64,000 nucleotides of DNA from Escherichia coli. Lineage in GTDB: Bacteria; Pseudomonadota; Gammaproteobacteria; Enterobacterales; Enterobacteriaceae. The position numbers and the translations under genes are program-made. Location of the stretch: the NCBI RefSeq assembly GCF_009931435.1, contig NZ_CP043414.1, one strand, 5' to 3'. The notes under the pieces are model-generated. The model was not told where the DNA came from. It made no database searches and saw only the letters and a list, made by a program, of their open reading frames with translations. Positions 5,876 through 27,744 of the stretch are shown here, piece by piece (position 1 is the stretch's first letter; the number at the start of each line of letters is the position of its first letter).

Positions 5876-7073
5876 AACGGGTCACGATCTCGTCGAGTAA
5901 TAATTGGCCAAGGAGCTCTTTGCGCTCAAGCGGTAAGACTTTATCTCCGTCCTGCCAGAAAAGGTGTAATGCGTTGTTGTCGCTGTTAAATCCTTGAGTT
6001 GGCTGGGAAACATCGTTCGCGCAGATCAGATCAAGGTTTTTACGGATACGTTTTTGCCGGGCGTATTCTTCCACATTATTTGTTTCGGCGGCAAATCCAA
6101 CGACGTAGGGTCGATGGTCTTTTAGTGCGGCAACACCAGCGACGATATCGGGGTTTTTAACCATTTTTATTGTTAATTCATCACCCTGCGTGGCCTGCTT
6201 TTTGATTTTCTCTGGGGCTACGGTAGCTGCGCGATAATCCGCCACGGCGGCGCAACCGATAAAAATATTTTGCTGCTGTACAGAAGCATTCACGGCCGCT
6301 TCCATTTCCAGCGCAGTCATCACATCAACACGTTTAACAAACGGTGGCGTCGGTAGTGAAACCGGACCTGATACCAGCGTGACGTTCGCGCCACGACGGG
6401 CAGCGGCGGCGGCGATAGCAAAACCCATCTTGCCTGAGCTGTGATTAGAGATATAACGCACCGGATCGAGCGGTTCACGCGTCGGGCCGGCGGTAATCAT
6501 AATGTTCAGATGTTTCAGGTCGTTGACGGGCGAAAAATGTGCTACCGCCATATCAACAATGGTTAACGGATCGAGCATTCGCCCAGGGCCGATATCACCA
6601 CAAGCCTGACTGCCGCTATCTGGCCCCCAGATGAGCAAACCACGCGAGGCAAGCAGCTCTAAATTATGCTGCGTGGCAGCTGCACGGTACATCTGCTGGT
6701 TCATGGCGGGCAGCACGGCTACAGGCGCAGGTGTAGCCAGGCAAATCGTCGATACCAGGTCATTCGCCATTCCGGCAGCAACACGGGCAATCAAATCTGC
6801 CGTGGCAGGGGCGAGAATCACTAAATCAGCCCATTTACCCAGCTCAATATGGCCCATAGCGGCTTCGGCTGCCGGGTCAAGCAGACTGTCGGAAACGGGA
6901 TACCCCGAAACTGCCTGCAAGCTAAGTGGGGTAATAAAGGCTTTTGCCGCTTCGGTCATGGCTACGCGGACGTCGGCCCCGCGATCGCGCAAACGACGCG
7001 CCAGTTCAGGGGTTTTATAGGCAGCAATACCGCCGCTGACGCCGAGAACGATTTTTTTACCGGCCAGGCTCAT
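5853..7073 (-). CDS. coaBC: bifunctional phosphopantothenoylcysteine decarboxylase / phosphopantothenate-cysteine ligase
   Basis: ORF track 5853..7145; canonical 406-aa start [37 protein letters not shown] 24 codons inside the track ORF. Confidence 0.95.
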
Positions 7074-11676: not shown

Positions 11677-12735
11677 GTGGATAAGCCATTTCGAAGAATT
11701 TTGCTCATTAAGATGCGTTTTCATGGGGATATGTTATTAACTACTCCCGTCATTAGTTCGCTGAAAAAAAATTACCCTGACGCAAAAATCGATGTGCTGC
11801 TTTATCAGGATACCATCCCGATTCTGTCTGAAAATCCAGAGATTAACGCGCTCTACGGCATAAAAAATAAAAAAGCAAAAGCCTCAGAAAAAATTTCCAA
11901 CTTTTTTCATCTCATCAAGGTATTACGTGCCAATAAGTATGACCTTATCGTCAATCTTACCGATCAATGGATGGTTGCTATACTGGTTCGCTTATTAAAT
12001 GCCCGTGTGAAAATTTCCCAGGATTATCATCATCGGCAGTCTGCTTTTTGGCGTAAAAGCTTCACCCATCTGGTGCCGTTGCAGGGTGGAAATGTGGTGG
12101 AAAGTAACTTATCCGTGCTGACGCCACTGGGTCTCGAATCGTTGGTGAAGCAGACAACCATGAGTTACCCGCCTGCAAGCTGGAAACGAATGCGTCGCGA
12201 ACTTGATCACGCAGGTGTTGGACAAAATTATGTGGTTATCCAACCTACCGCGCGGCAAATCTTTAAATGCTGGGACAACGCCAAGTTTTCCGCTGTGATT
12301 GATGCCTTACATACACGTGGCTATGAAGTCGTTCTGACGTCCGGCCCGGATAAAGACGATCTGGCCTGCGTCAATGAAATTGCGCAGGGATGCCAGACGC
12401 CACCAGTAACGGCGTTGGCCGGAAAGGTAACCTTCCCGGAACTTGGTGCGTTAATCGATCATGCGCAGCTGTTTATTGGCGTTGATTCCGCACCGGCGCA
12501 CATTGCCGCTGCAGTTAATACGCCGCTGATATCGCTGTTTGGTGCGACAGACCATATTTTCTGGCGTCCCTGGTCAAATAACATGATTCAATTCTGGGCT
12601 GGAGATTACCGGGAAATGCCAACACGCGATCAGCGTGACCGAAATGAGATGTATCTTTCGGTTATTCCGGCGGCAGATGTCATTGCAGCTGTCGATAAAT
12701 TACTTCCCTCCTCCACGACAGGTACGTCGTTATGA
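11677..12735 (+). CDS. waaQ: LPS heptosyltransferase III
   Basis: ORF track 352 aa (GTG start) MDKPFRRILLIKMRFHGDMLLTTPVISSLKKNYPDAKIDVLLYQD...; first gene of the long waa operon. Confidence 0.88.
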   Translation: MDKPFRRILLIKMRFHGDMLLTTPVISSLKKNYPDAKIDVLLYQDTIPILSENPEINALYGIKNKKAKASEKISNFFHLIKVLRANKYDLIVNLTDQWMVAILVRLLNARVKISQDYHHRQSAFWRKSFTHLVPLQGGNVVESNLSVLTPLGLESLVKQTTMSYPPASWKRMRRELDHAGVGQNYVVIQPTARQIFKCWDNAKFSAVIDALHTRGYEVVLTSGPDKDDLACVNEIAQGCQTPPVTALAGKVTFPELGALIDHAQLFIGVDSAPAHIAAAVNTPLISLFGATDHIFWRPWSNNMIQFWAGDYREMPTRDQRDRNEMYLSVIPAADVIAAVDKLLPSSTTGTSL

Positions 12736-13856
12736 TCGTTGCTTTTTGTTTATATAAATATTTTCCCTTTGGCGGTTTGCAGCGCGATTTTATGCGTATT
12801 GCTCAGACAGTCGCTGCCCGAGGTCATCATGTTCGGGTTTATACCCAGTCGTGGGAAGGCGAATGCCCTGATGTATTTGAACTGATCAACGTGCCGGTTA
12901 AATCGCATACTAATCACGGGCGCAATGCGGAGTATTTTGCCTGGGTGCAAAAACATTTACGTGAACATCCCGTCGATAGAGTCGTTGGATTCAACAAAAT
13001 GCCGGGGCTGGACGTTTATTATGCCGCTGATGTTTGTTATGCCGAGAAAGTGGCGCAGGAGAAAGGCTTTTTCTATCGCTTGACGTCACGTTATCGCCAT
13101 TATGCCGCCTTTGAGCGGGCAACCTTTGAACAGGGCAAGCCGACACAGTTGCTGATGCTGACGGACAAGCAAATCGCCGATTTCCAGAAACATTATCAGA
13201 CTGAAGCGGAGCGTTTTCATATTCTGCCACCGGGGATTTATCCTGATCGTAAATATAGCCAGCAGCCAGCCAATAGCCGTGAAATCTTCCGTAAGAAGAA
13301 TGGAATAACCGAACAACAATATTTATTGTTGCAGGTCGGTTCAGACTTCACGCGTAAAGGTGTTGATCGTTCCATTGAAGCACTTGCTTCATTACCGGAT
13401 TCGCTGCGCCACAACACATTGCTATATGTTGTTGGGCAGGATAAACCGCGAAAATTTGAGGCGCTGGCAGAAAAACGCGGCGTGCGCAGTAATGTTCACT
13501 TCTTCTCGGGGCGCAACGATGTCTCGGAATTAATGGCGGCGGCGGATTTATTACTGCATCCTGCCTACCAGGAAGCGGCGGGAATTGTGCTGCTGGAAGC
13601 GATTACTGCAGGATTACCGGTACTAACAACAGCCGTTTGTGGCTATGCGCGTTATATTGTTGACGCCAATTGCGGCGAGGCTATTGCTGAGCCATTCCGC
13701 CAGGAAACATTGAATGAGATTTTACGCAAAGCGTTAACGCAATCTTCATTGCGCCAGGCCTGGGCGGAAAATGCGCGACATTATGCTGATACACAAGATT
13801 TATACAGTCTGCCAGAGAAAGCAGCGGACATCATAACGGGTGGTCTGGATGGTTGA
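12732..13856 (+). CDS. waaG: LPS core glucosyltransferase I
   Basis: ORF track 374 aa [43 protein letters not shown]... Confidence 0.95.
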
Positions 13857-14646
13857 ACTTAAAGAGCCGTTTGCCACGTTATGGCGCGGTAAAGATCCTT
13901 TTGAGGAAGTTAAAACCTTGCAGGGTGAGGTTTTTCGTGAACTGGAAACTCGCCGCACTCTGCGCTTTGAAATGGCGGGCAAAAGCTATTTTCTCAAATG
14001 GCATCGCGGCACGACCCTGAAAGAGATAATCAAAAATTTACTCTCATTGCGGATGCCAGTATTAGGCGCAGACCGCGAATGGAATGCGATTCATCGACTG
14101 CGGGATGTCGGCGTTGATACTATGTATGGGGTGGCATTCGGCGAAAAAGGCATTAATCCACTGACCAGAACCTCGTTTATTATAACCGAAGATCTGACAC
14201 CAACCATCAGTCTGGAAGATTACTGTGCTGACTGGGCGACTAACCCTCCAGATGTTCGCGTAAAGCGTATGCTTATTAAGCGTGTCGCGATGATGGTGCG
14301 CGATATGCATGCTGCGGGCATTAACCACCGTGACTGTTATATCTGTCATTTCCTGCTGCACTTGCCTTTTTCCGGTAAGGAAGAGGAGTTAAAAATTTCA
14401 GTAATTGACCTGCACCGGGCGCAGCTTCGCACGCGCGTTCCACGTCGTTGGCGCGATAAAGATCTTATTGGGCTTTATTTTTCTTCGATGAATATTGGCC
14501 TGACTCAGCGGGATATCTGGCGGTTCATGAAGGTGTATTTTGCTGCCCCGCTTAAAGACATTCTCAAGCAGGAACAAGGGCTGCTGTCGCAAGCAGAAGC
14601 AAAAGCCACAAAAATCAGGGAAAGAACGATTCGAAAATCGTTGTAA
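13849..14646 (+). CDS. waaP: LPS core heptose I kinase
   Basis: ORF track 13840..14646; canonical start [54 protein letters not shown] at ATG 13849, overlapping the waaG stop. Confidence 0.9.
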
Positions 14647-14661
14647 TTTCCGGAGAGAAAT

Positions 14662-15678
14662 ATGAGTGCCCACTATTTTAATCCACAAGAGATGATCAAT
14701 AAGACAATCATCTTCGATGAAAGGCCAGAGGCGTCAGTGGCATCATCATTCCATGTTGCTTATGGCATTGATAAAAACTTTCTTTTTGGTTGTGGTGTTT
14801 CAATCACGTCAGTTTTGTTACATAACAACGACGTGAGTTTTGTCTTCCACGTTTTTATTGATGATATCCCTGACGCCGATATCCAGCGTTTATCCCAATT
14901 GGCGAAAAGCTATCATACCTGTATCCAGATCCATCTGGTAAATTGTGAACGGCTTAAGGTATTACCGACGACCAAAAATTGGTCTATTGCCATGTATTTC
15001 CGTTTTGTAATTGCAGATTACTTTATTGATCAACAAGATAAGATCCTGTACCTGGATGCTGATATCGCCTGTCAGGGAACCTTAAAACCGCTGATAACAA
15101 TGGATCTTGCCAATAACGTTGCTGCTGTTGTTACTGAACGCGATGCTAACTGGTGGTCGTTACGGGCTCAAAGTCTGCAGTGTAATGAACTTGAAAAGGG
15201 TTACTTTAATTCAGGTGTCCTGTTAATTAATACACTAGCGTGGGCGCAGGAGTCCGTTTCTGCTAAAGCGATGTCGATGCTTGCTGATAAAGCCGTCGTT
15301 TCCCGTTTAACCTATATGGATCAAGATATACTAAATCTTATCCTGTTAGGGAAAGTTAAATTCATTGATGCTAAATACAATACGCAATTTAGTTTAAATT
15401 ATGAATTAAAAAAATCATTTATTTGTCCAATTAATGATGAAACCGTATTAATTCATTATGTCGGCCCGACAAAACCCTGGCATTACTGGGCCGGTTATCC
15501 AAGCGCGCAGCCATTTATCAAAGCCAAAGAAGCATCGCCATGGAAAAATGAACCGTTAATGCGGCCAATTAACTCAAATTATGCTCGTTATTGCGCTAAG
15601 CATAATTTTAAACAAAATAAACCAATTAACGGGATAATGAATTATATTTATTATTTTTATTTAAAGATAATAAAATGA
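14662..15678 (+). CDS. waaO: glycosyltransferase family 8, LPS outer-core alpha-1,3-glucosyltransferase (R1-type WaaO)
   Basis: ORF track 338 aa; GT8 signature (FHVAYGIDKNF..., LYLDADIACQG, HYVGPTKPWHYWAGYP); first of three GT8 paralogues after waaP, the R1 core-type order. Confidence 0.75.
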   Translation: MSAHYFNPQEMINKTIIFDERPEASVASSFHVAYGIDKNFLFGCGVSITSVLLHNNDVSFVFHVFIDDIPDADIQRLSQLAKSYHTCIQIHLVNCERLKVLPTTKNWSIAMYFRFVIADYFIDQQDKILYLDADIACQGTLKPLITMDLANNVAAVVTERDANWWSLRAQSLQCNELEKGYFNSGVLLINTLAWAQESVSAKAMSMLADKAVVSRLTYMDQDILNLILLGKVKFIDAKYNTQFSLNYELKKSFICPINDETVLIHYVGPTKPWHYWAGYPSAQPFIKAKEASPWKNEPLMRPINSNYARYCAKHNFKQNKPINGIMNYIYYFYLKIIK

Positions 15679-15694
15679 CATTGAGAAAAGTTAA

Positions 15695-16690
15695 ATGAAT
15701 GAATTTATAAAAGAACGGTTTTCGTATTTAGCAGATAATAAAAAAGAAAACGTCCCAGAGCTAAATGTTTCCTACGGTATCGATAAGAATTTTTTGTATG
15801 GTGCTGGCGTTTCAATTTCTTCCGTTTTGATTAATAATTCAGATATTAATTTTGTCTTTCATGTTTTCACTGATTATGTGGATGATGATTATTTAAAGTC
15901 ATTTAATGAAACAGCAAAACAATTTAATACCTCAATTATTGTATATTTAATTGACCCAAAATACTTTGCTGATCTACCGACGTCACAGTTTTGGTCGTAC
16001 GCGACATACTTCAGGGTATTGTCCTTTGAATATCTGAGTGAAAGTATTTCCACACTGCTGTATCTGGATGCCGATGTCGTTTGTAAAGGAAGTCTGAAAC
16101 CTCTCACAAAAATTATATTTAAAGATGAGTTTGCTGCGGTTATTCCTGACAATGATAGTACTCAGGCGGCATGTGCAAAACGTCTTAACATTCCCGAAAT
16201 GAATGGACGTTATTTCAATGCAGGCGTTATCTATGTCAATCTTAAAAAATGGCATGAAGCAAATTTGACACCGTATTTACTCAAACTTTTACGAGGGGAA
16301 ACTAAATATGGCTCTCTTAAATATTTAGATCAGGATGCGTTGAATATCGCATTTAATATGAATAATATCTACCTTGCGAAGGATTTTGATACTATTTATA
16401 CCCTGAAAAACGAACTTTATGATCGTAGTCATCGAAAGTATCAGCAAACCATTACCGATAAAACAGTGTTGATTCACTATACAGGGATAACTAAACCATG
16501 GCATAGCTGGGCTGGATATCCGTCTGCATCATACTTTAATATCGCGCGTGAACAATCTCCCTGGAAGAAATATCCTCTTAAAGAGGCGCGGACTGTTGCA
16601 GAAATGCAGAAACAATATAAGCATCTGTTTGCCCATGGTGAGTATATAAAAGGCATAACTTCATTAATTAAGTACAAGCTTAAGAAATAA
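15695..16690 (+). CDS. waaT: glycosyltransferase family 8, LPS outer-core alpha-1,2-glycosyltransferase (R1-type WaaT)
   Basis: ORF track 331 aa; GT8 motifs (VSYGIDKNF, LYLDADVVCKG, HYTGITKPWHSWAGYP). Assignment to WaaT by position in the R1-type order. Confidence 0.7.
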   Translation: MNEFIKERFSYLADNKKENVPELNVSYGIDKNFLYGAGVSISSVLINNSDINFVFHVFTDYVDDDYLKSFNETAKQFNTSIIVYLIDPKYFADLPTSQFWSYATYFRVLSFEYLSESISTLLYLDADVVCKGSLKPLTKIIFKDEFAAVIPDNDSTQAACAKRLNIPEMNGRYFNAGVIYVNLKKWHEANLTPYLLKLLRGETKYGSLKYLDQDALNIAFNMNNIYLAKDFDTIYTLKNELYDRSHRKYQQTITDKTVLIHYTGITKPWHSWAGYPSASYFNIAREQSPWKKYPLKEARTVAEMQKQYKHLFAHGEYIKGITSLIKYKLKK

Positions 16691-16699
16691 ATTACTCTT

Positions 16700-17392
16700 A
16701 TGATTACAAGTATACGTTATCGCGGCTTCTCATTTTATTACAAAGATAATGATAATAAATATAAAGAAATCTTTGATGAAATACTGGCCTATAATTTTAA
16801 AACAGTAAAAGTATTACGTAATATTGATGATACCAAAGTATCGTTGATTGATACGAAATATGGTCGCTATGTTTTTAAAGTCTTTGCTCCGAAAACGAAA
16901 AGGAATGAACGTTTTTTAAAATCTTTTGTAAAAGGTGACTACTATCAGAATTTGATCGTTGAAACCGATCGTGTCAGAAGTGCAGGTCTTACTTTTCCTA
17001 ATGATTTTTATTTTCTGGCTGAGCGTAAAATTTTCAACTATGCCAGTGTTTTTATCATGCTTATCGAGTATGTCGAGGGCGTAGAGCTCAATGATATGCC
17101 GATTATTCCAGAAAATGTTAAAGCAGAAATTAAGGTTTCAATGGAAAAATTGCATGCCTTAAATATGCTATCGGGCGACCCACACCGGGGTAACTTTATC
17201 GTTAGTAAAGATGGTGTCAGGATAATTGACCTATCCGGTAAAAGCTGTACGGCAGAGCGTAAAGCTCGTGATCGTCTGGCCATGGAACGTCACCTGGGTA
17301 TTGCCAACGAAATAAAAGATTATGGCTACTATTCAGTAATCTACAGAACCAAACTACGCAAATTTATTAAAAAATTAAAAGGCAAAGCGTAA
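16700..17392 (+). CDS. waaY: LPS core heptose II kinase
   Basis: ORF track 230 aa MITSIRYRGFSFYYKDNDNKYKEIFDEILAYNFKTVKVLRNIDDTKVSLIDTKYGRYVFKVF...; kinase-like HRGNFIV / IIDLSGK motifs. Confidence 0.85.
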   Translation: MITSIRYRGFSFYYKDNDNKYKEIFDEILAYNFKTVKVLRNIDDTKVSLIDTKYGRYVFKVFAPKTKRNERFLKSFVKGDYYQNLIVETDRVRSAGLTFPNDFYFLAERKIFNYASVFIMLIEYVEGVELNDMPIIPENVKAEIKVSMEKLHALNMLSGDPHRGNFIVSKDGVRIIDLSGKSCTAERKARDRLAMERHLGIANEIKDYGYYSVIYRTKLRKFIKKLKGKA

Positions 17393-17417
17393 ACCACACA
17401 GTCAAAACGGAACCAAC

Positions 17418-18446
17418 ATGGATTTATTAGCTGAGAGTATTACTGAAGTCGCTGTCTCTGGGGAAATTGCTAACACCGATCGTGTGTTAAATATCGCTTA
17501 CGGTATTGACCGTAATTTTTTATTTGGTGCGGCAGTATCTATGCAATCAGTTGTTATGCATAACCCGGACCTTGCGGTTAAGTTTCATCTCTTTACCGAC
17601 TACATTGATGAAGATTATCTACAACGTGTTAACGCTTTTACCAGCAAAAATGCTAACGTTGAAGTAAGAATTTATAAAGTCTCCAGTGCCTTTATTGATA
17701 TCTTCCCCAGCCTGAAACAGTGGTCTTATGCAACATTCTTCCGTTTAGTTGCGTTCCAGTATCTGAGTGAAACTATTGAAAATCTGTTATATATCGATGC
17801 TGATGTCATCTGTAAAGGCTCATTAGCTGGATTGCTTGATATTAATTTTGACGGCGATAAGTTTGCAGCTGTTATTAAAGATGTGCCTTTTATGCAGGAA
17901 AAACCAGCGAAGCGTCTGGCTATAGAGGGACTTCCAGGGAATTATTTCAACGCTGGTGTAGTATATCTGCAGCTTGAAGCATGGTCGAAAAATGATTTTA
18001 TGAACAAAGCCATTGCTATGCTGGCAAGTGACCCGCAGCACACGAAATATAAATGCCTTGATCAGGATATTTTAAATATTCTGTTCTTTGGTCATTGTAT
18101 TTTTATTAGCGGCGATTATGATTGCTTTTATGGCATTGACTATGAGTTAAAAAATAAAAGCAATGAAGATTATAAAAAGACCATTACCGATGATACTAAG
18201 CTGATTCATTATGTTGGCGTAACGAAGCCCTGGAACGACTGGACAAATTATCCCTGCCAGAAGTATTTTAATGAGGCTTATCAGGCTTCTTGCTGGAATG
18301 ATGTGGCGTTTATTCCAGCCACGAATGAAAAGCAGTATCAAGTGAAATACCAACATGCAAAGAAAAATGGTGATACGTTTAACGCTTTCATTTACTTCAT
18401 TAAATTCAAATTAAATAAGTATAAAAGAAAACTATTTGGGCAATAA
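17418..18446 (+). CDS. waaW: glycosyltransferase family 8, LPS outer-core alpha-1,2-galactosyltransferase (R1-type WaaW)
   Basis: ORF track 342 aa; GT8 motifs (IAYGIDRNF, LYIDADVICKG, HYVGVTKPWNDWTNYP). Assignment by position after waaY. Confidence 0.7.
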   Translation: MDLLAESITEVAVSGEIANTDRVLNIAYGIDRNFLFGAAVSMQSVVMHNPDLAVKFHLFTDYIDEDYLQRVNAFTSKNANVEVRIYKVSSAFIDIFPSLKQWSYATFFRLVAFQYLSETIENLLYIDADVICKGSLAGLLDINFDGDKFAAVIKDVPFMQEKPAKRLAIEGLPGNYFNAGVVYLQLEAWSKNDFMNKAIAMLASDPQHTKYKCLDQDILNILFFGHCIFISGDYDCFYGIDYELKNKSNEDYKKTITDDTKLIHYVGVTKPWNDWTNYPCQKYFNEAYQASCWNDVAFIPATNEKQYQVKYQHAKKNGDTFNAFIYFIKFKLNKYKRKLFGQ

Positions 18447-18524
18447 AAATCATGGATGTCTGAGTTACAATAATAATTAAGGATGAGTACTATCATATTT
18501 TATTAGTTCAGGCAAGAGAACACG

Positions 18525-19508
18525 ATGAGCAATGATTACCCTTTAGTATCCATAATAATACCGACGTATAATTCATCTGATTACATTACTGAAACTCTAA
18601 CGAAATTAGAAAAACAAACTTACCCAAATTTTGAAATTGTTATTGTTAATGATGGTTCTAAAGATAACACATCAAACGTTTTGAGAGAGTATGGGTTAAC
18701 CCACTCGCAATTAATTATTATCAATAAAGAAAATGGCGGTGTTTCGTCTGCCAGGAATACAGGTATCCGCAAGGCGCAAGGACAGTTTATATGTTTTATG
18801 GATGATGATGATGAGATAGATCCTAACTATCTGCTGAAGATGTATTCCAGACAACATGAGACGGGAGGGGATGCGATTTATTGTGGGCTTTATGGCCATC
18901 ATATAAAAAATGGTGTTACTTACTCACCTATAAATACAGAGTTTAATGAAGGGTCTTTACTTTTCGACTTTTTTTATAAAAAGGTCAGATTCCATATAGG
19001 GTGCTTGTTTATAAGAAAACAACTCCTGGAAGATAATAATCTTTTTTTTGATGAAGATTTACGACTAGGAGAAGATCTGGATTTTATCTATCGACTGCTA
19101 ATTACATGCGATATGTATGCGGTTCCATATTATATGTATAAGCATAACTATAGAGAAAATTCCTTAATGAACTCATGTAGAACCATCACTCATTATCGAC
19201 ATGAGTCATTTGCGCACGAAAGAATCTACTCTTCTGTGATGCAGTTATACAAAGGTAACCGGAAAGAAGAAATTCATACATTATTGAGTAAAAATAGAAC
19301 TTATCATAAAACTCGTTATTTATGGAATGTTCTACTTAATGGCGATTTTGAATTATTAAATCAATTAGTTGAAAGCAATGAAAAAGAATTGAAAGATTGT
19401 AATCTTCTTGGCAAGAGAGATAAGAGGCGAGCAAAAATATTAGCATCAAAAAACTATATTCTCTGGAGGATGGTAAGACTGGTAAATAGAAAAAAGAATA
19501 AACGTTAG
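18525..19508 (+). CDS. waaV: glycosyltransferase family 2, LPS outer-core beta-glucosyltransferase (R1-type WaaV)
   Basis: ORF track 327 aa MSNDYPLVSIIIPTYNSSDYITETLTKLEKQTYPNFEIVIVNDGSKDNT... (GT2 fold motif, DDDDE). Assignment by position before waaL. Confidence 0.7.
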   Translation: MSNDYPLVSIIIPTYNSSDYITETLTKLEKQTYPNFEIVIVNDGSKDNTSNVLREYGLTHSQLIIINKENGGVSSARNTGIRKAQGQFICFMDDDDEIDPNYLLKMYSRQHETGGDAIYCGLYGHHIKNGVTYSPINTEFNEGSLLFDFFYKKVRFHIGCLFIRKQLLEDNNLFFDEDLRLGEDLDFIYRLLITCDMYAVPYYMYKHNYRENSLMNSCRTITHYRHESFAHERIYSSVMQLYKGNRKEEIHTLLSKNRTYHKTRYLWNVLLNGDFELLNQLVESNEKELKDCNLLGKRDKRRAKILASKNYILWRMVRLVNRKKNKR

Positions 19509-19553
19509 GTCTTCCATTAAATAACCCATCCTCGTAGCATAGGTTGAAATTAT

Positions 19554-20807
19554 ATGTCGTTTTGTTGGAATGAAATTAACTCTGGTGTCAAGTCTTTAAC
19601 TCTCATATTATGTATGTTGTCTTTAATGACTTTGTCTTTGTGGGATGATGTTGCAACAAAGTTTCTTCATGCAGCTGGAATTATATCTGCATTATATTTT
19701 CTAGCGACACCAAAAAAAACAATAACTAATAATCCTACGTTGTTAATTTTCATCTCATTATGTCTTTTGGGTATCGTTAATATCATCTGGTATTCACATT
19801 ATAAAGTTTCAGGCTCGGTTTATACCAATGCATATCGTGGCCCAATGGAAACTGGAAAAATTGCCTTGTGTAGTGCTTTTATTTTCTTAGTTCTTTTTGC
19901 TAAAGATGAGATGAGAACCAAAATAAAATTTGGGAAACTAATTCTGTTCGCATCCCTGGCAACGCAGTTACTTTTTTTTGCGCATGCCATGTGGCAACAT
20001 TTCTATTTAAACGTCGACCGTGTTGCATTATCAGCTTCCCACGCTACAACAGCAGGCTACATCATCCTTTTCCCTTCTTTACTGGCATCAATTCTCATTT
20101 TAAAATCCGACTTTAGACATAAAACAACATTATATACAATTAACTTCATGCTTAGCTTATGTGCTGTTATAGTAACTGAAACGCGTGCAGCCATATTAGT
20201 GTTTCCATTCTTTGCGTTACTATTAATCGTAATGGATAGTTATATTAATAAGCGAATTAATTATAAGTTATATTGTTTTATTGCGATTGCATTATTAGCA
20301 GGTGTATTTTCTTTTAAAGATACATTACTTACGAGAATGAATGACTTAAATAGGGATTTAGTTAATTATTCGCATGATAACACCAGAACTTCAGTCGGTG
20401 CCCGTCTGGCAATGTATGAAGTTGGTTTAAAAACATATTCTCCAATAGGACAATCACTGGAAAAACGCGCGGAAAAAATACATGAACTAGAAGAGAAAGA
20501 GCCTAGATTAAGTGGCGCTTTACCCTTTGTAGATTCTCATTTGCATAACGATCTCATAGATACGTTATCAACGCGTGGTATTCCTGGAGTAGTATTAACA
20601 ATTTTAGCCTTTTCAGCAATATTCATATATGCCTTAAGAACTGCTAAAGAACCTTATATTTTAATCTTGCTTTTTTCACTACTGGTAGTAGGCCTAAGTG
20701 ATGTAATACTCTTTTCTAAACCGGTTCCGACTGCTGTGTTTGTCACCATAATATTGCTTTGTGCTTATTTTAAAGCACAATCGGACCAATGTTTATTAGA
20801 TAAGTAA
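19554..20807 (+). CDS. waaL: O-antigen ligase
   Basis: ORF track 417 aa, polytopic membrane protein with a late periplasmic loop; last gene of the operon before convergent waaC. AT-rich like the rest of the central waa genes. Confidence 0.85.
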   Translation: MSFCWNEINSGVKSLTLILCMLSLMTLSLWDDVATKFLHAAGIISALYFLATPKKTITNNPTLLIFISLCLLGIVNIIWYSHYKVSGSVYTNAYRGPMETGKIALCSAFIFLVLFAKDEMRTKIKFGKLILFASLATQLLFFAHAMWQHFYLNVDRVALSASHATTAGYIILFPSLLASILILKSDFRHKTTLYTINFMLSLCAVIVTETRAAILVFPFFALLLIVMDSYINKRINYKLYCFIAIALLAGVFSFKDTLLTRMNDLNRDLVNYSHDNTRTSVGARLAMYEVGLKTYSPIGQSLEKRAEKIHELEEKEPRLSGALPFVDSHLHNDLIDTLSTRGIPGVVLTILAFSAIFIYALRTAKEPYILILLFSLLVVGLSDVILFSKPVPTAVFVTIILLCAYFKAQSDQCLLDK

Positions 20808-22916: not shown

Positions 22917-23849
22917 TTATGCGTCGCGATTCAGCCAGGCCATGTATTCCGTTACACCTTCAGCAACGGTTTTGAACGGTTTGTCGTAACCCGCCGCGCG
23001 CAGATTCGTCAGATCTGCCTGAGTGAACGCCTGATAGCGGCCTTTCAGTTTATCCGGGAACGGAATGTATTCGATCTGGCCTTTCTTGTGATAAGCAAGC
23101 GTAGCATCTGCTACTGCCTGGAAGGATTCTGCACGACCGGTGCCGAGGTTGAAGATGCCGGAAACGCCGTTTTCCAGGAACCACAGATTCACATCAGCCA
23201 CGTCGCCCACATAGACGAAGTCACGTTTGAAGTTCTCGCTACCTTCGAACAGCTTCGGTGATTCACCGTTGTTAAGCTGAGTGTTGAGATGGAAAGCGAC
23301 GCTCGCCATGCTGCCTTTATGGCCTTCACGCGGTCCATAAACGTTGAAATAGCGGAAGCCAACAATCTGCGAGTTCGCTTCTGGCAGGATTTGGCGAACA
23401 TATTCATCAAACAGGAATTTTGAGTAACCGTAGACGTTCAACGGTTTTTCGTACTCGCGGGATTCAATAAAGTCGGAGGTGCGACCGCCGTAAGTGGCCG
23501 CGGAAGAAGCGTACAGGAACGGGATTTCGCGTTCCAGACAGTAGTGCAGCAGCTCTTTGGAGTATTGATAGTTGTTATCCATCATATACTTGCCATCCCA
23601 CTCGGTGGTGGAAGAGCACGCGCCTTCGTGGAAAATCGCTTCGACATCGCCGAACTCTTCGCCAGCCATAATCTGGATCAGGAAGTCTTCCTTATCCATA
23701 TAGTCCGCGATATCCAGATCCACCAGGTTCACAAACTTGGTGCCGTCTTTCAGGTTGTCCACCACCAGAATATCGGTGATGCCTTTGTCATTCAGGGCTT
23801 TAACGATGTTGCTGCCGATAAAGCCCGCGCCGCCGGTAACGATGATCAT
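22917..23849 (-). CDS. hldD: ADP-L-glycero-D-manno-heptose-6-epimerase
   Basis: ORF track 310 aa [39 protein letters not shown]... (Rossmann GxGxxG). Confidence 0.95.
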
Positions 23850-24062
23850 AACTGTAACCTTCGAATTATGGAGTCAGAGACAATCTCAGACACGAATGCT
23901 TCTATCATATCACTACACGGCGTTGGCTTCAGCCATTCGCCAAAAGTGAGATTGATGGACGTTATTTATCCTGAATTTTGCAGAAGTGTTAACGCGTCAT
24001 CTCGTCGCAACCTATAAGTTTGGGTAATATGTGCTGGAATTTGCCCTGTCTGGAGAATCGCA

Positions 24063-25259
24063 ATGCGTGGAGAATTTTATCAGCAGTTAACCAACGATCT
24101 GGAAACCGCAAGGGCGGAAGGGTTGTTTAAAGAAGAGCGCATTATTACGTCTGCGCAACAAGCAGACATCACTGTGGCTGATGGAAGCCACGTCATTAAC
24201 TTTTGTGCCAATAACTATCTCGGACTGGCGAATCATCCGGATCTGATTGCGGCGGCAAAGGCGGGAATGGATTCTCACGGTTTCGGCATGGCTTCAGTAC
24301 GTTTTATCTGCGGCACTCAGGACAGCCATAAAGAGCTTGAACAAAAACTGGCGGCCTTCCTGGGGATGGAAGATGCGATTCTCTACTCTTCCTGCTTTGA
24401 TGCTAACGGTGGCCTGTTCGAAACGCTGTTGGGCGCGGAAGACGCCATTATCTCCGACGCACTGAACCACGCGTCTATTATTGATGGTGTGCGTCTGTGC
24501 AAAGCTAAACGCTATCGTTATGCCAACAACGATATGCAGGAGCTGGAAGCACGTCTGAAAGAAGCGCGTGAAGCCGGTGCGCGTCATGTGCTGATTGCCA
24601 CCGATGGTGTGTTCTCGATGGACGGCGTGATTGCCAACCTGAAAGGTGTTTGCGATCTGGCAGATAAATACGATGCCCTGGTGATGGTAGACGACTCCCA
24701 CGCCGTTGGTTTTGTCGGTGAAAATGGTCGTGGTTCCCATGAATACTGCGATGTGATGGGCCGGGTCGATATTATCACCGGCACGCTCGGTAAAGCGCTG
24801 GGCGGGGCGTCTGGTGGTTATACCGCGGCGCGCAAAGAAGTGGTTGAGTGGCTGCGCCAGCGTTCTCGTCCGTACCTGTTCTCCAACTCGTTGGCACCGG
24901 CCATTGTTGCCGCTTCCATCAAAGTGTTGGAGATGGTTGAAGCGGGTAGCGAGCTGCGTGACCGTCTGTGGGCGAACGCGCGTCAGTTCCGTGAGCAAAT
25001 GTCGGCGGCGGGCTTTACCCTGGCGGGTGCCGATCACGCCATTATTCCGGTCATGCTTGGCGATGCTGTAGTGGCGCAAAAATTTGCACGTGAACTGCAA
25101 AAAGAGGGCATTTACGTCACCGGTTTCTTCTATCCGGTCGTTCCGAAAGGTCAGGCGCGTATTCGTACCCAGATGTCTGCGGCGCATACCCCTGAGCAAA
25201 TTACGCGTGCGGTAGAAGCGTTCACGCGTATTGGTAAACAACTGGGCGTAATCGCCTGA
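24063..25259 (+). CDS. kbl: 2-amino-3-ketobutyrate CoA ligase (glycine C-acetyltransferase)
   Basis: ORF track 398 aa [38 protein letters not shown]...; PLP-lysine region TLGKALGG. Confidence 0.95.
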
Positions 25260-25272
25260 GTGAGGATGTGAG

Positions 25273-26298
25273 ATGAAAGCGTTATCCAAACTGAAAGCGG
25301 AAGAGGGCATCTGGATGACCGACGTTCCTGAACCGGAACTCGGACATAACGATCTGCTGATTAAAATCCGTAAAACAGCCATCTGCGGGACTGACGTTCA
25401 CATCTATAACTGGGATGAGTGGTCGCAAAAAACCATCCCAGTACCGATGGTTGTAGGCCATGAATATGTCGGTGAGGTGGTTGGCATCGGTCAGGAAGTG
25501 AAAGGCTTCAAGATCGGCGATCGCGTTTCTGGCGAAGGCCATATCACTTGTGGTCATTGCCGCAACTGTCGTGGTGGCCGTACCCATTTGTGCCGCAACA
25601 CGATAGGCGTTGGTGTTAATCGCCCGGGCTGCTTCGCCGAATATCTGGTGATTCCGGCGTTCAACGCTTTCAAAATCCCCGACAATATCTCCGATGATCT
25701 GGCTTCCATTTTTGATCCCTTCGGTAACGCCGTGCATACCGCGCTGTCGTTTGATCTGGTGGGCGAGGATGTGCTGGTCTCTGGTGCAGGCCCGATTGGT
25801 ATTATGGCGGCGGCGGTGGCGAAACACGTTGGTGCACGTAACGTGGTGATCACGGATGTTAATGAATACCGCCTTGAGTTGGCGCGTAAAATGGGTATCA
25901 CCCGTGCGGTTAACGTCGCTAAAGAGAACCTCAATGATGTGATGGCAGAGTTAGGCATGACCGAAGGCTTTGATGTCGGTCTGGAAATGTCCGGTGCGCC
26001 GCCAGCGTTTCGTACCATGCTCGACACCATGAACCACGGCGGTCGCATTGCGATGCTGGGTATTCCACCGTCTGATATGTCTATCGACTGGACCAAAGTG
26101 ATCTTTAAAGGCTTGTTCATTAAAGGTATTTACGGTCGTGAGATGTTTGAAACCTGGTACAAGATGGCGGCGCTGATTCAGTCTGGCCTCGATCTCTCGC
26201 CGATCATTACCCATCGTTTCTCTATCGATGATTTCCAGAAGGGCTTTGACGCTATGCGTTCGGGCCAGTCCGGGAAAGTTATTCTGAGCTGGGATTAA
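25273..26298 (+). CDS. tdh: L-threonine 3-dehydrogenase
   Basis: ORF track 341 aa [50 protein letters not shown]... Confidence 0.95.
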
Positions 26299-26709: not shown

Positions 26710-27744
26710 ATGATGAACAGCACCAATAAACTCAGTGTTATTATCCCGTTATATAATGCGGGAGATGATTTCCGTACTTGCATGGAATCTTTAATCGCGC
26801 AAACCTGGACTGCTCTGGAAATCATTATTATTAACGATGGTTCAACGGATAATTCTGTTGAAATAGCAAAGCATTACGCGGAAAACTATCCGCACGTTCG
26901 TTTGCTGCATCAGGCGAATGCCGGCGCATCGGTGGCGCGTAATCGTGGGATCGAGGCGGCGACGGGTAAATATGTCGCTTTTGTCGATGCTGACGATGAG
27001 GTCTATCCCACTATGTACGAAACGCTGATGACCATGGCGTTAGAGGACGACCTCGACGTGGCGCAGTGCAACGCTGACTGGTGTTTTCGTGAAACGGGAG
27101 AAACCTGGCAGTCCATCCCCAGCGATCGCCTTCGCTCAACCGGCGTATTAACCGGCCCGGACTGGCTGCGAATGGGGCTTTCTTCCCGCCGTTGGACTCA
27201 TGTTGTCTGGATGGGCATTTATCGTCGTGATGTCATTGTTAAAAATAACATTAAATTTATTGCCGGATTACATCATCAGGATATTGTCTGGACAACAGAA
27301 TTTATGTTTAACGCGCAACGCGTGCGATATACCGAGCAATCGTTATATAAATATTATTTGCATAATACGTCAGTGAGCCGATTGAATAGACAGGGAAATA
27401 AAAACCTTAATTATCAACGCCACTATATTAAGATTACCCGACTGTTGGAAAAGTTAAATCGCGATTACGCAGACAGAATAGTGATTTACCCGGAATTTCA
27501 TCAACAAATAACTTACGAAGCATTACGTGTTTGCCATGCGGTACGTAAAGAGCCAGATATTATTACCCGCCAACGGATGATTGCTGAGATATTTACTTCC
27601 GGTATGTATAAGCGACTGATTTTCAATGTACGCAGCATAAAGGTGGGTTATCAGGCGTTACTGTGGTCTTTCCGCTTATGGCAATGGCGCGACAAAACGC
27701 GGTCGCACCATCGCATTACGCGTAGCGCCTTTAATTTGCGCTAG
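26710..27744 (+). CDS. waaH: GT2-family glycosyltransferase WaaH (YibD)
   Basis: ORF track 344 aa [49 protein letters not shown]...; conserved position after tdh. Confidence 0.9.

Follow-up and report, generated by a model that had tools for sequence, protein, structure and literature searches.

The short hldD-kbl spacer of an Escherichia coli chromosome, probably the ancestral arrangement, and its replacement in K-12 by a segment bearing htrL (yibB)

Introduction

The accessory genes that vary between E. coli waa loci of core types R1-R4 and K-12 are low-GC, LPS-associated cassettes set between conserved flanks, and yibB (htrL), found at the edge of this region in K-12, is a cassette of the same kind. 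Unlike the core-type genes of the waa locus, yibB has no strict tie to the core type. Variation in htrL/yibB is already known, since the gene has been listed as accessory alongside waaO, waaJ, waaY, and waaZ in a UTI pan-genome comparison (PMC8303582), and the exchange of low-GC cassettes is established behavior of the waa locus. Members of the HtrL_YibB family are also present in LOS loci such as OCL5 of A. baumannii (PMC4172580). Pfam lists the family as being of unknown function, and a search for a solved structure related to YibB returned none (best E = 0.24).

The locus considered here lies in a 64-kb stretch of E. coli DNA (the window). Its closest described counterpart is the htrL(yibB)-hldD-waaFCL / kbl-tdh region of K-12, which has the same flanking genes in the same order and orientation as the window. 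The two differ between the divergent genes hldD and kbl, where K-12 carries an AT-rich segment of 1,282 bp and the window has no such AT-rich segment but only 60 bp. In E. albertii, Citrobacter, Enterobacter, Kluyvera, Cedecea, and other Enterobacteriaceae, hldD and kbl are likewise divergent and are separated, as in the window, by 212-218 bp.

The hldD-kbl interval in the window and in K-12

A first-pass annotation of the window had stated that only about 210 bp separate the divergent hldD and kbl starts and that htrL is missing between them. Both statements hold. The spacer is exactly 213 bp (43% GC), and the list of open reading frames, the sequence, and a tblastn search with YibB agree that htrL is absent from it. 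This absence is a structural fact of the sequence rather than a statistical signal. The genes and the spacer, with coordinates taken directly from the window, are as follows.

22917-23849, minus strand: hldD, first gene of the hldD-waaF-waaC operon (open reading frame list)
23850-24062, 213 bp: divergent control region of hldD and kbl (open reading frame list and sequence)
24063-25259, plus strand: kbl, glycine C-acetyltransferase (2-amino-3-ketobutyrate CoA ligase), 398 aa (open reading frame and annotations)
25273-26298, downstream of kbl: tdh (open reading frame and annotations)
26710-27744, after tdh: waaH-like gene

The region matching hldD is annotated as rfaD in every matching E. coli record, and the HldD protein of the window is 98-99% identical to those of E. 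albertii and E. coli. Nothing in the spacer is coding; its longest internal reading frames are mere overlaps with the flanking genes. When K-12 YibB was compared with the whole 64-kb window by tblastn, only noise was obtained (best E = 0.71, nothing at 1e-5), and by this search the window contains no member of the HtrL_YibB family (PF09612).

For K-12, the annotation had placed htrL in this interval, and this is correct. In an annotated MG1655 derivative (L001), yibB lies between rfaD/hldD and kbl as a gene of 858 bp and 37% GC within an interval of 1,435 bp and 36.6% GC, and its product matches Pfam HtrL_YibB (PF09612) at 7.9e-131. The alignment that had been proposed as a check was run, and the short spacer is not shared by K-12. 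It yields two BLAST blocks: window positions 23750-23898 match L001 7248-7396 (148 of 149 bases, 99%), and positions 23959-24162 match L001 8679-8882 (200 of 204 bases, 98%). As read from these blocks, homology stops 49 bp upstream of the hldD ATG on the left and 104 bp upstream of the kbl ATG on the right. Between the blocks lie 60 bp in the window (23899-23958) and 1,282 bp in K-12 (L001 7397-8678). Because 60 bp of one sequence faces 1,282 bp of the other, the difference is a replacement and not a clean insertion or deletion. The spacer of the window can thus be divided as follows.

23850-23898, minus strand, 49 bp: hldD 5' leader, identical in K-12
23899-23958, 60 bp: block with no megablast-level match in K-12, comprising the predicted native promoter of hldD and the spacer center, where conservation is poor
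23940-23958, about 20 bp: variable spacer center, the least conserved columns of the alignment
23959-24062, plus strand, 104 bp: predicted kbl-tdh promoter side, 98% identical to K-12

Four elements are recognized in the 1,282-bp segment of K-12: first a diverged hldD promoter copy, then an AT-rich stretch, then yibB, and finally a terminator hairpin (L001 8552-8583). The promoter copy reads GTAATCATACCATCACAT...CTTCAGCCCTTTACA, with TGgTATGAT on the sense strand, and its derived bases are common to a second yibB-bearing locus described below (L026) and unlike the version of E. coli and E. albertii. The possibility that K-12 had lost the hldD promoter, homology to the window ending only 49 bp from the ATG, was considered and rejected, as alignment with outgroups reveals TGgTATGAT...CTTCAGCCC.

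Outgroup spacers and the direction of the change

Related loci were collected by a scan with HldD, taking one genome per species, to give 80 loci (L003-L082) that were searched by tblastn with Kbl, Tdh, WaaF, and YibB. E. albertii and Citrobacter are the closest outgroups in this set; Salmonella and E. fergusonii lie outside it, and Salmonella presumably also has kbl adjoining rfaD. Across the Enterobacterales sampled, hldD and kbl are divergent neighbors. Among the 27 other Enterobacteriaceae spacers that were aligned with the window, 25 are 212-218 bp long, including those of E. albertii, Citrobacter, Enterobacter, Phytobacter, Pluralibacter, Kluyvera, Pseudocitrobacter, Pseudescherichia, Cedecea, and others. 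The sampled loci of Pantoea, Erwinia, Serratia, Yersinia, Photorhabdus, Proteus, and Providencia have spacers mostly of about 215-240 bp, and longer ones are seen in a few loci (for example, Brenneria, Edwardsiella, and Xenorhabdus). A relative of yibB is present in just one of the 80 loci (L026).

The 60-bp block of the window aligns with the outgroup spacers column for column over its full length, and therefore the short spacer is the ancestral form and that of K-12 is derived. The window and the other Enterobacteriaceae have in common the boxes TGnTATGAT, TCAGCC, CGTGATTTATGC, GTCATCTCGT, and GGTAATATGTGC, and differ by substitutions only, which fall in the less constrained columns. Judged from this alignment, the spacer of the window is essentially the E. 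coli/E. albertii version of an Enterobacteriaceae region.

It could be argued instead that the window lineage once had htrL and then deleted it, so that the short spacer is a secondary loss. In favor of such a history, yibB is present in K-12 as well as in O157:H7 and O111 strains, and deletions do occur at this locus, as in strain PKF8, which lacks yibB, kbl, tdh, and part of waaH beside an IS1. However, the 60-bp block is no deletion scar; it aligns with the spacers of E. albertii, Citrobacter, and Enterobacter and holds an invariant promoter box, and deleting the K-12 cassette could not regenerate this sequence. Furthermore, 79 of the 80 loci of other genomes are without yibB. A secondary loss is consequently very improbable. 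We are instead confident that the window retains an intact ancestral Enterobacteriaceae hldD/kbl region from which nothing has been lost, and that K-12 has the derived state, acquired most likely through homologous recombination. For the window strain itself this is an ordinary finding of little consequence, the arrangement being the common, ancestral, and majority one.

Distribution of the two spacer forms in E. coli

The annotation had also taken the presence or absence of htrL to be a polymorphism bordering the waa region, and direct counts bear this out. Among 5,426 complete E. coli genomes, the short spacer (a match over at least 80% of its length) was found in 3,465 (64%) and the 1,282-bp segment specific to K-12 in 1,959 (36%). 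The spacer of the window is 100% identical to that of E. coli 2020CK-00188. K-12 is thus not the reference state at this locus, as about two thirds of the complete genomes lack htrL/yibB.

These counts also bear on whether htrL might have been relocated in the window's genome rather than being absent from it, a question that arises in that the search of the source genome covered 64 kb. No YibB-like coding sequence occurs in those 64 kb. In addition, the two sets of genomes are complementary: 1,959 and 3,465 sum to exactly the 5,424 genomes with any match, and therefore, at the sensitivity of megablast, genomes with the short spacer have no yibB DNA elsewhere. The K-12 segment was found at 1,979 places, with at most two per genome, all of them chromosomal and none on a plasmid. 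Relocation is accordingly extremely improbable, and simple absence from a chromosome of the ancestral type is the preferred reading.

The relation of yibB to the core type was assessed in an evenly spaced sample of 60 records. Twenty of these carry a waaL of the window's type (found in 1,833 of the 5,426 complete genomes), and 19 of the 20 are without yibB, one having it; among chromosomes with other waaL types, yibB is present in 20 of 39. The association between yibB and core type is therefore real but not strict. Strict linkage is ruled out by three strains. H1, the closest relative of the window over hldD-kbl (99.4%), has a core cluster like that of K-12 and no yibB, and in YZ22PE68 and PKF8 the window-type waaL is combined with the yibB-type junction.

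In PKF8 (L084 5050-6223), the K-12-type segment runs for its first 217 bp and then gives way to an IS1; yibB, kbl, and tdh are gone, as is most of waaH. This is a rare secondary deletion on the yibB haplotype. A third spacer allele was also encountered, 213 bp long and without yibB, in E. coli 32-4 (L083 12001-12213). It is present in 483 of the short-spacer genomes, where the spacer is about 84% identical to that of the window, and it is a mosaic, with 90-97% identity to the window in its hldD half but only 63-80% in its kbl half, which resembles other genera. E. coli 32-4 has an R2-like core cluster, with a GlcNAc transferase and with rfaL in the hldD operon.

Origin of the yibB segment

The one outgroup locus with yibB belongs to a genome deposited as 'Enterobacter sp. 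Ag1' (L026 4562-6000). Its yibB lies at the same site between hldD and kbl, with 81% amino-acid and 76.6% DNA identity to K-12. In hldD (89-96% identity to C. neteri) and in kbl, the locus resembles Cedecea. Over the start, leader, and promoter of hldD, in contrast, its identity to K-12 is 88% and that to Cedecea neteri only 67%. This pattern points to an intergeneric transfer by recombination in the flanks that has left the footprint of an allelic replacement, and on the sequence comparison the yibB cassette would be one that carries part of the hldD control region along with it. In Citrobacter youngae CCUG 30791 (L072 4552-5703), the same spacer holds a different gene, encoding a 383-aa GT4 glycosyltransferase with the Pfam domains Glycos_transf_1 and Glyco_transf_4. 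The variable center of the spacer is thus the place of yibB in K-12 and in 'Enterobacter sp. Ag1' and of the GT4 gene in Citrobacter youngae. The occurrence of yibB in two genera and of a GT4 gene at one site suggests that the spacer center is a site where LPS-related accessory genes land recurrently, brought in by homologous recombination.

In the model that we favor, a low-GC segment of about 1.28 kb would have replaced 60 bp of the spacer in the K-12 lineage. The incoming DNA would have consisted of a foreign, diverged hldD promoter, an AT-rich yibB promoter region, yibB/htrL, and a terminator; the donor would have been a different enterobacterium, and the crossovers would have fallen within the hldD leader on one side and the box upstream of kbl on the other. 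Both forms of the spacer now segregate in E. coli. The mechanism and the direction of the exchange are inferred from the boundaries and from the outgroups. It should be noted that the yibB genes of L026 and K-12 have only 76.6% DNA identity, a divergence that, taken by itself, is also compatible with an old vertical presence followed by many losses.

If the segment had been imported in this way, the listing of the K-12 htrL/hldD spacer as an H-NS-bound divergent promoter region (PMC3946193) would be as expected for AT-rich DNA of foreign origin. It would also follow that work on the hldD promoter architecture in K-12 concerns a recombinant upstream region, comprising the H-NS-bound, AT-rich spacer and a diverged promoter copy, and both haplotypes matter for studies of the regulation of the heptose/inner-core operon or of HtrL function.

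Another way of accounting for the segment is that it is a site-specific mobile element, such as an IS, a transposon, or an integrase-borne islet. The filling of one site in E. coli, in a Cedecea-like genome, and, with a different gene, in Citrobacter youngae would suit this explanation, as would an 11-bp perfect inverted repeat, GATAAATAACG / CGTTATTTATC, that brackets yibB in K-12 (L001 7554-7564 and 8680-8690). The right copy of this repeat, however, is the conserved box upstream of kbl, and in 1.5 kb chance alone would give about 0.3 such 11-mers; the repeat may reflect chance or a site for a shared regulator. Annotation and a repeat search of the K-12 cassette gave no transposase or integrase, and no target-site duplication, terminal inverted repeats, or direct repeats at the homology boundaries. 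For lack of such repeats and of a transposase, a transposon origin was dropped. Furthermore, the import of a homologous but diverged hldD promoter, together with the Escherichia-like leader of L026, is the signature of allelic replacement, and the exclusively chromosomal location of the 1,979 cassette places likewise argues against a mobile element, which we regard as highly unlikely. Homologous recombination between flanks remains the preferred mechanism.

The hldD promoter and leader

The annotation had reasoned that so short a spacer must hold both divergent promoters. This appears to be so, as predicted from conserved -10 elements in alignments of 28-47 species. The predicted elements on the hldD side are as follows.

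23904-23912, minus strand: predicted extended -10 of hldD, TGaTATGAT, 54 nt upstream of the ATG
23927-23932, minus strand: -35-like hexamer CTGAAG, 17 bp upstream of the -10, within a conserved TCAGCC(A/C)TTC box
23875-23889, minus strand: leader hairpin CUGAGAUUGUCUCUG, with a UUG loop and a single U-U mismatch in the stem

The 47 Enterobacterales leaders that were aligned range from Escherichia to Proteus, Providencia, and Photorhabdus. In all of them the -10 motif takes the form TGnTAT(G/T)AT, with T9, G10, T12, A13, T14, A16, and T17 unchanged throughout. The features of a sigma-70 extended -10 promoter are present, namely a TG one base upstream of a TATAAT-like hexamer and a sensible distance to the start codon. 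The -35-like hexamer matches TTGACA at only three of six positions. A scan of 23700-24200 for consensus promoters and terminators, which needs four of six matches in the -35, found no site, because the -35 elements are weak. Placed from the position of the -10, the transcription start of hldD would lie near 23897 (about 23897-23899). On this basis, hldD would be driven by an extended -10 promoter with a weak -35, giving a leader of about 48 nt with a small conserved hairpin. The upstream end of the leader, about at the predicted start, coincides with the left homology edge of the two haplotypes. Transcripts of htrM/rfaD were reportedly mapped by Raina and Georgopoulos in 1991; the reviews by Klein and Raina contain no promoter coordinates for hldD.

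Across the 47 leaders, 85% of cells in the hairpin stem are paired, versus 29-48% when the partners are slid, and there are 62 cells with double changes, versus 4-25 with slid partners. On four of five measures, none of 500 shuffles attained the observed values. The fold of the hldD leader in E. coli is itself weak (-7.7 kcal/mol, z = 0.40), so that covariation is the sole support for the hairpin. A scan of 23700-24200 against Rfam gave no match on either strand at E up to 1.

What is mildly new here is the extended -10 that is invariant across the order, the covarying hairpin in the leader, and the evidence for a recurrent landing site. A broader proposal, that the hldD leader contains an undescribed cis-acting RNA hairpin and that the spacer center serves as an intergeneric landing pad for LPS-modifying genes, is put forward tentatively, as a possibility we think rather less probable than its opposite. 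If it were true, the hairpin could tune the supply of LPS heptose, for example, by affecting the stability of the mRNA or by responding to temperature or envelope stress, and genes that modify LPS, such as yibB and the GT4 gene, would be swapped between genera by recombination guided by the flanks.

The kbl side of the spacer

Conservation in the alignment marks three boxes upstream of kbl.

23960-23978: conserved kbl-upstream box CGTTATTTATCCTGAATTT (also given as CGTGATTTATGCTGCAAAA)
23996-24005: nearly invariant box GTCATCTCGT
24025-24030: -10-like TAATAT, within the box TTTGGGTAATATGTGC

These boxes are inferred, from their conservation, to be promoter or regulator sites. In the proposed arrangement, kbl would be served by a promoter with the TAATAT -10 and by the conserved upstream boxes, and the center of about 20 bp between the hldD and kbl promoters would be free to vary. 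The kbl-tdh operon is reportedly regulated by Lrp (Rex et al., 1991), and the AT-rich box upstream of kbl is therefore a candidate Lrp site.

Other features of the surrounding region

The outer-core cluster of the window (11677-20807) consists of waaQ, waaG, waaP, waaO, a GT8 gene, waaY, a second GT8 gene, and a GT2 gene, followed by a waaL-like reading frame of 417 aa on the waaQ strand. In this cluster, NCBIfam names waaO and rfaY and recognizes two further GT8 proteins and one GT2 protein; the waaL-like frame has no NCBIfam match. The R1 layout is said to have been given by Heinrichs et al. in 1998 as waaQ-G-P-O-T-Y-W-V-L, with waaL on the waaQ strand and outside the hldD operon. The order and sizes of the reading frames in the window fit this layout, and the cluster may be of the R1 type.

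Some loci (L083 10941-11075; L012 and L014, about 6930-7060), but not the window, have a strong palindrome of about 118 bp (-48.5 kcal/mol) between hldD and waaF. The HldD stop of E. coli 32-4 is lost to this element, which adds 15 residues to the protein. The palindrome resembles an ERIC repeat.
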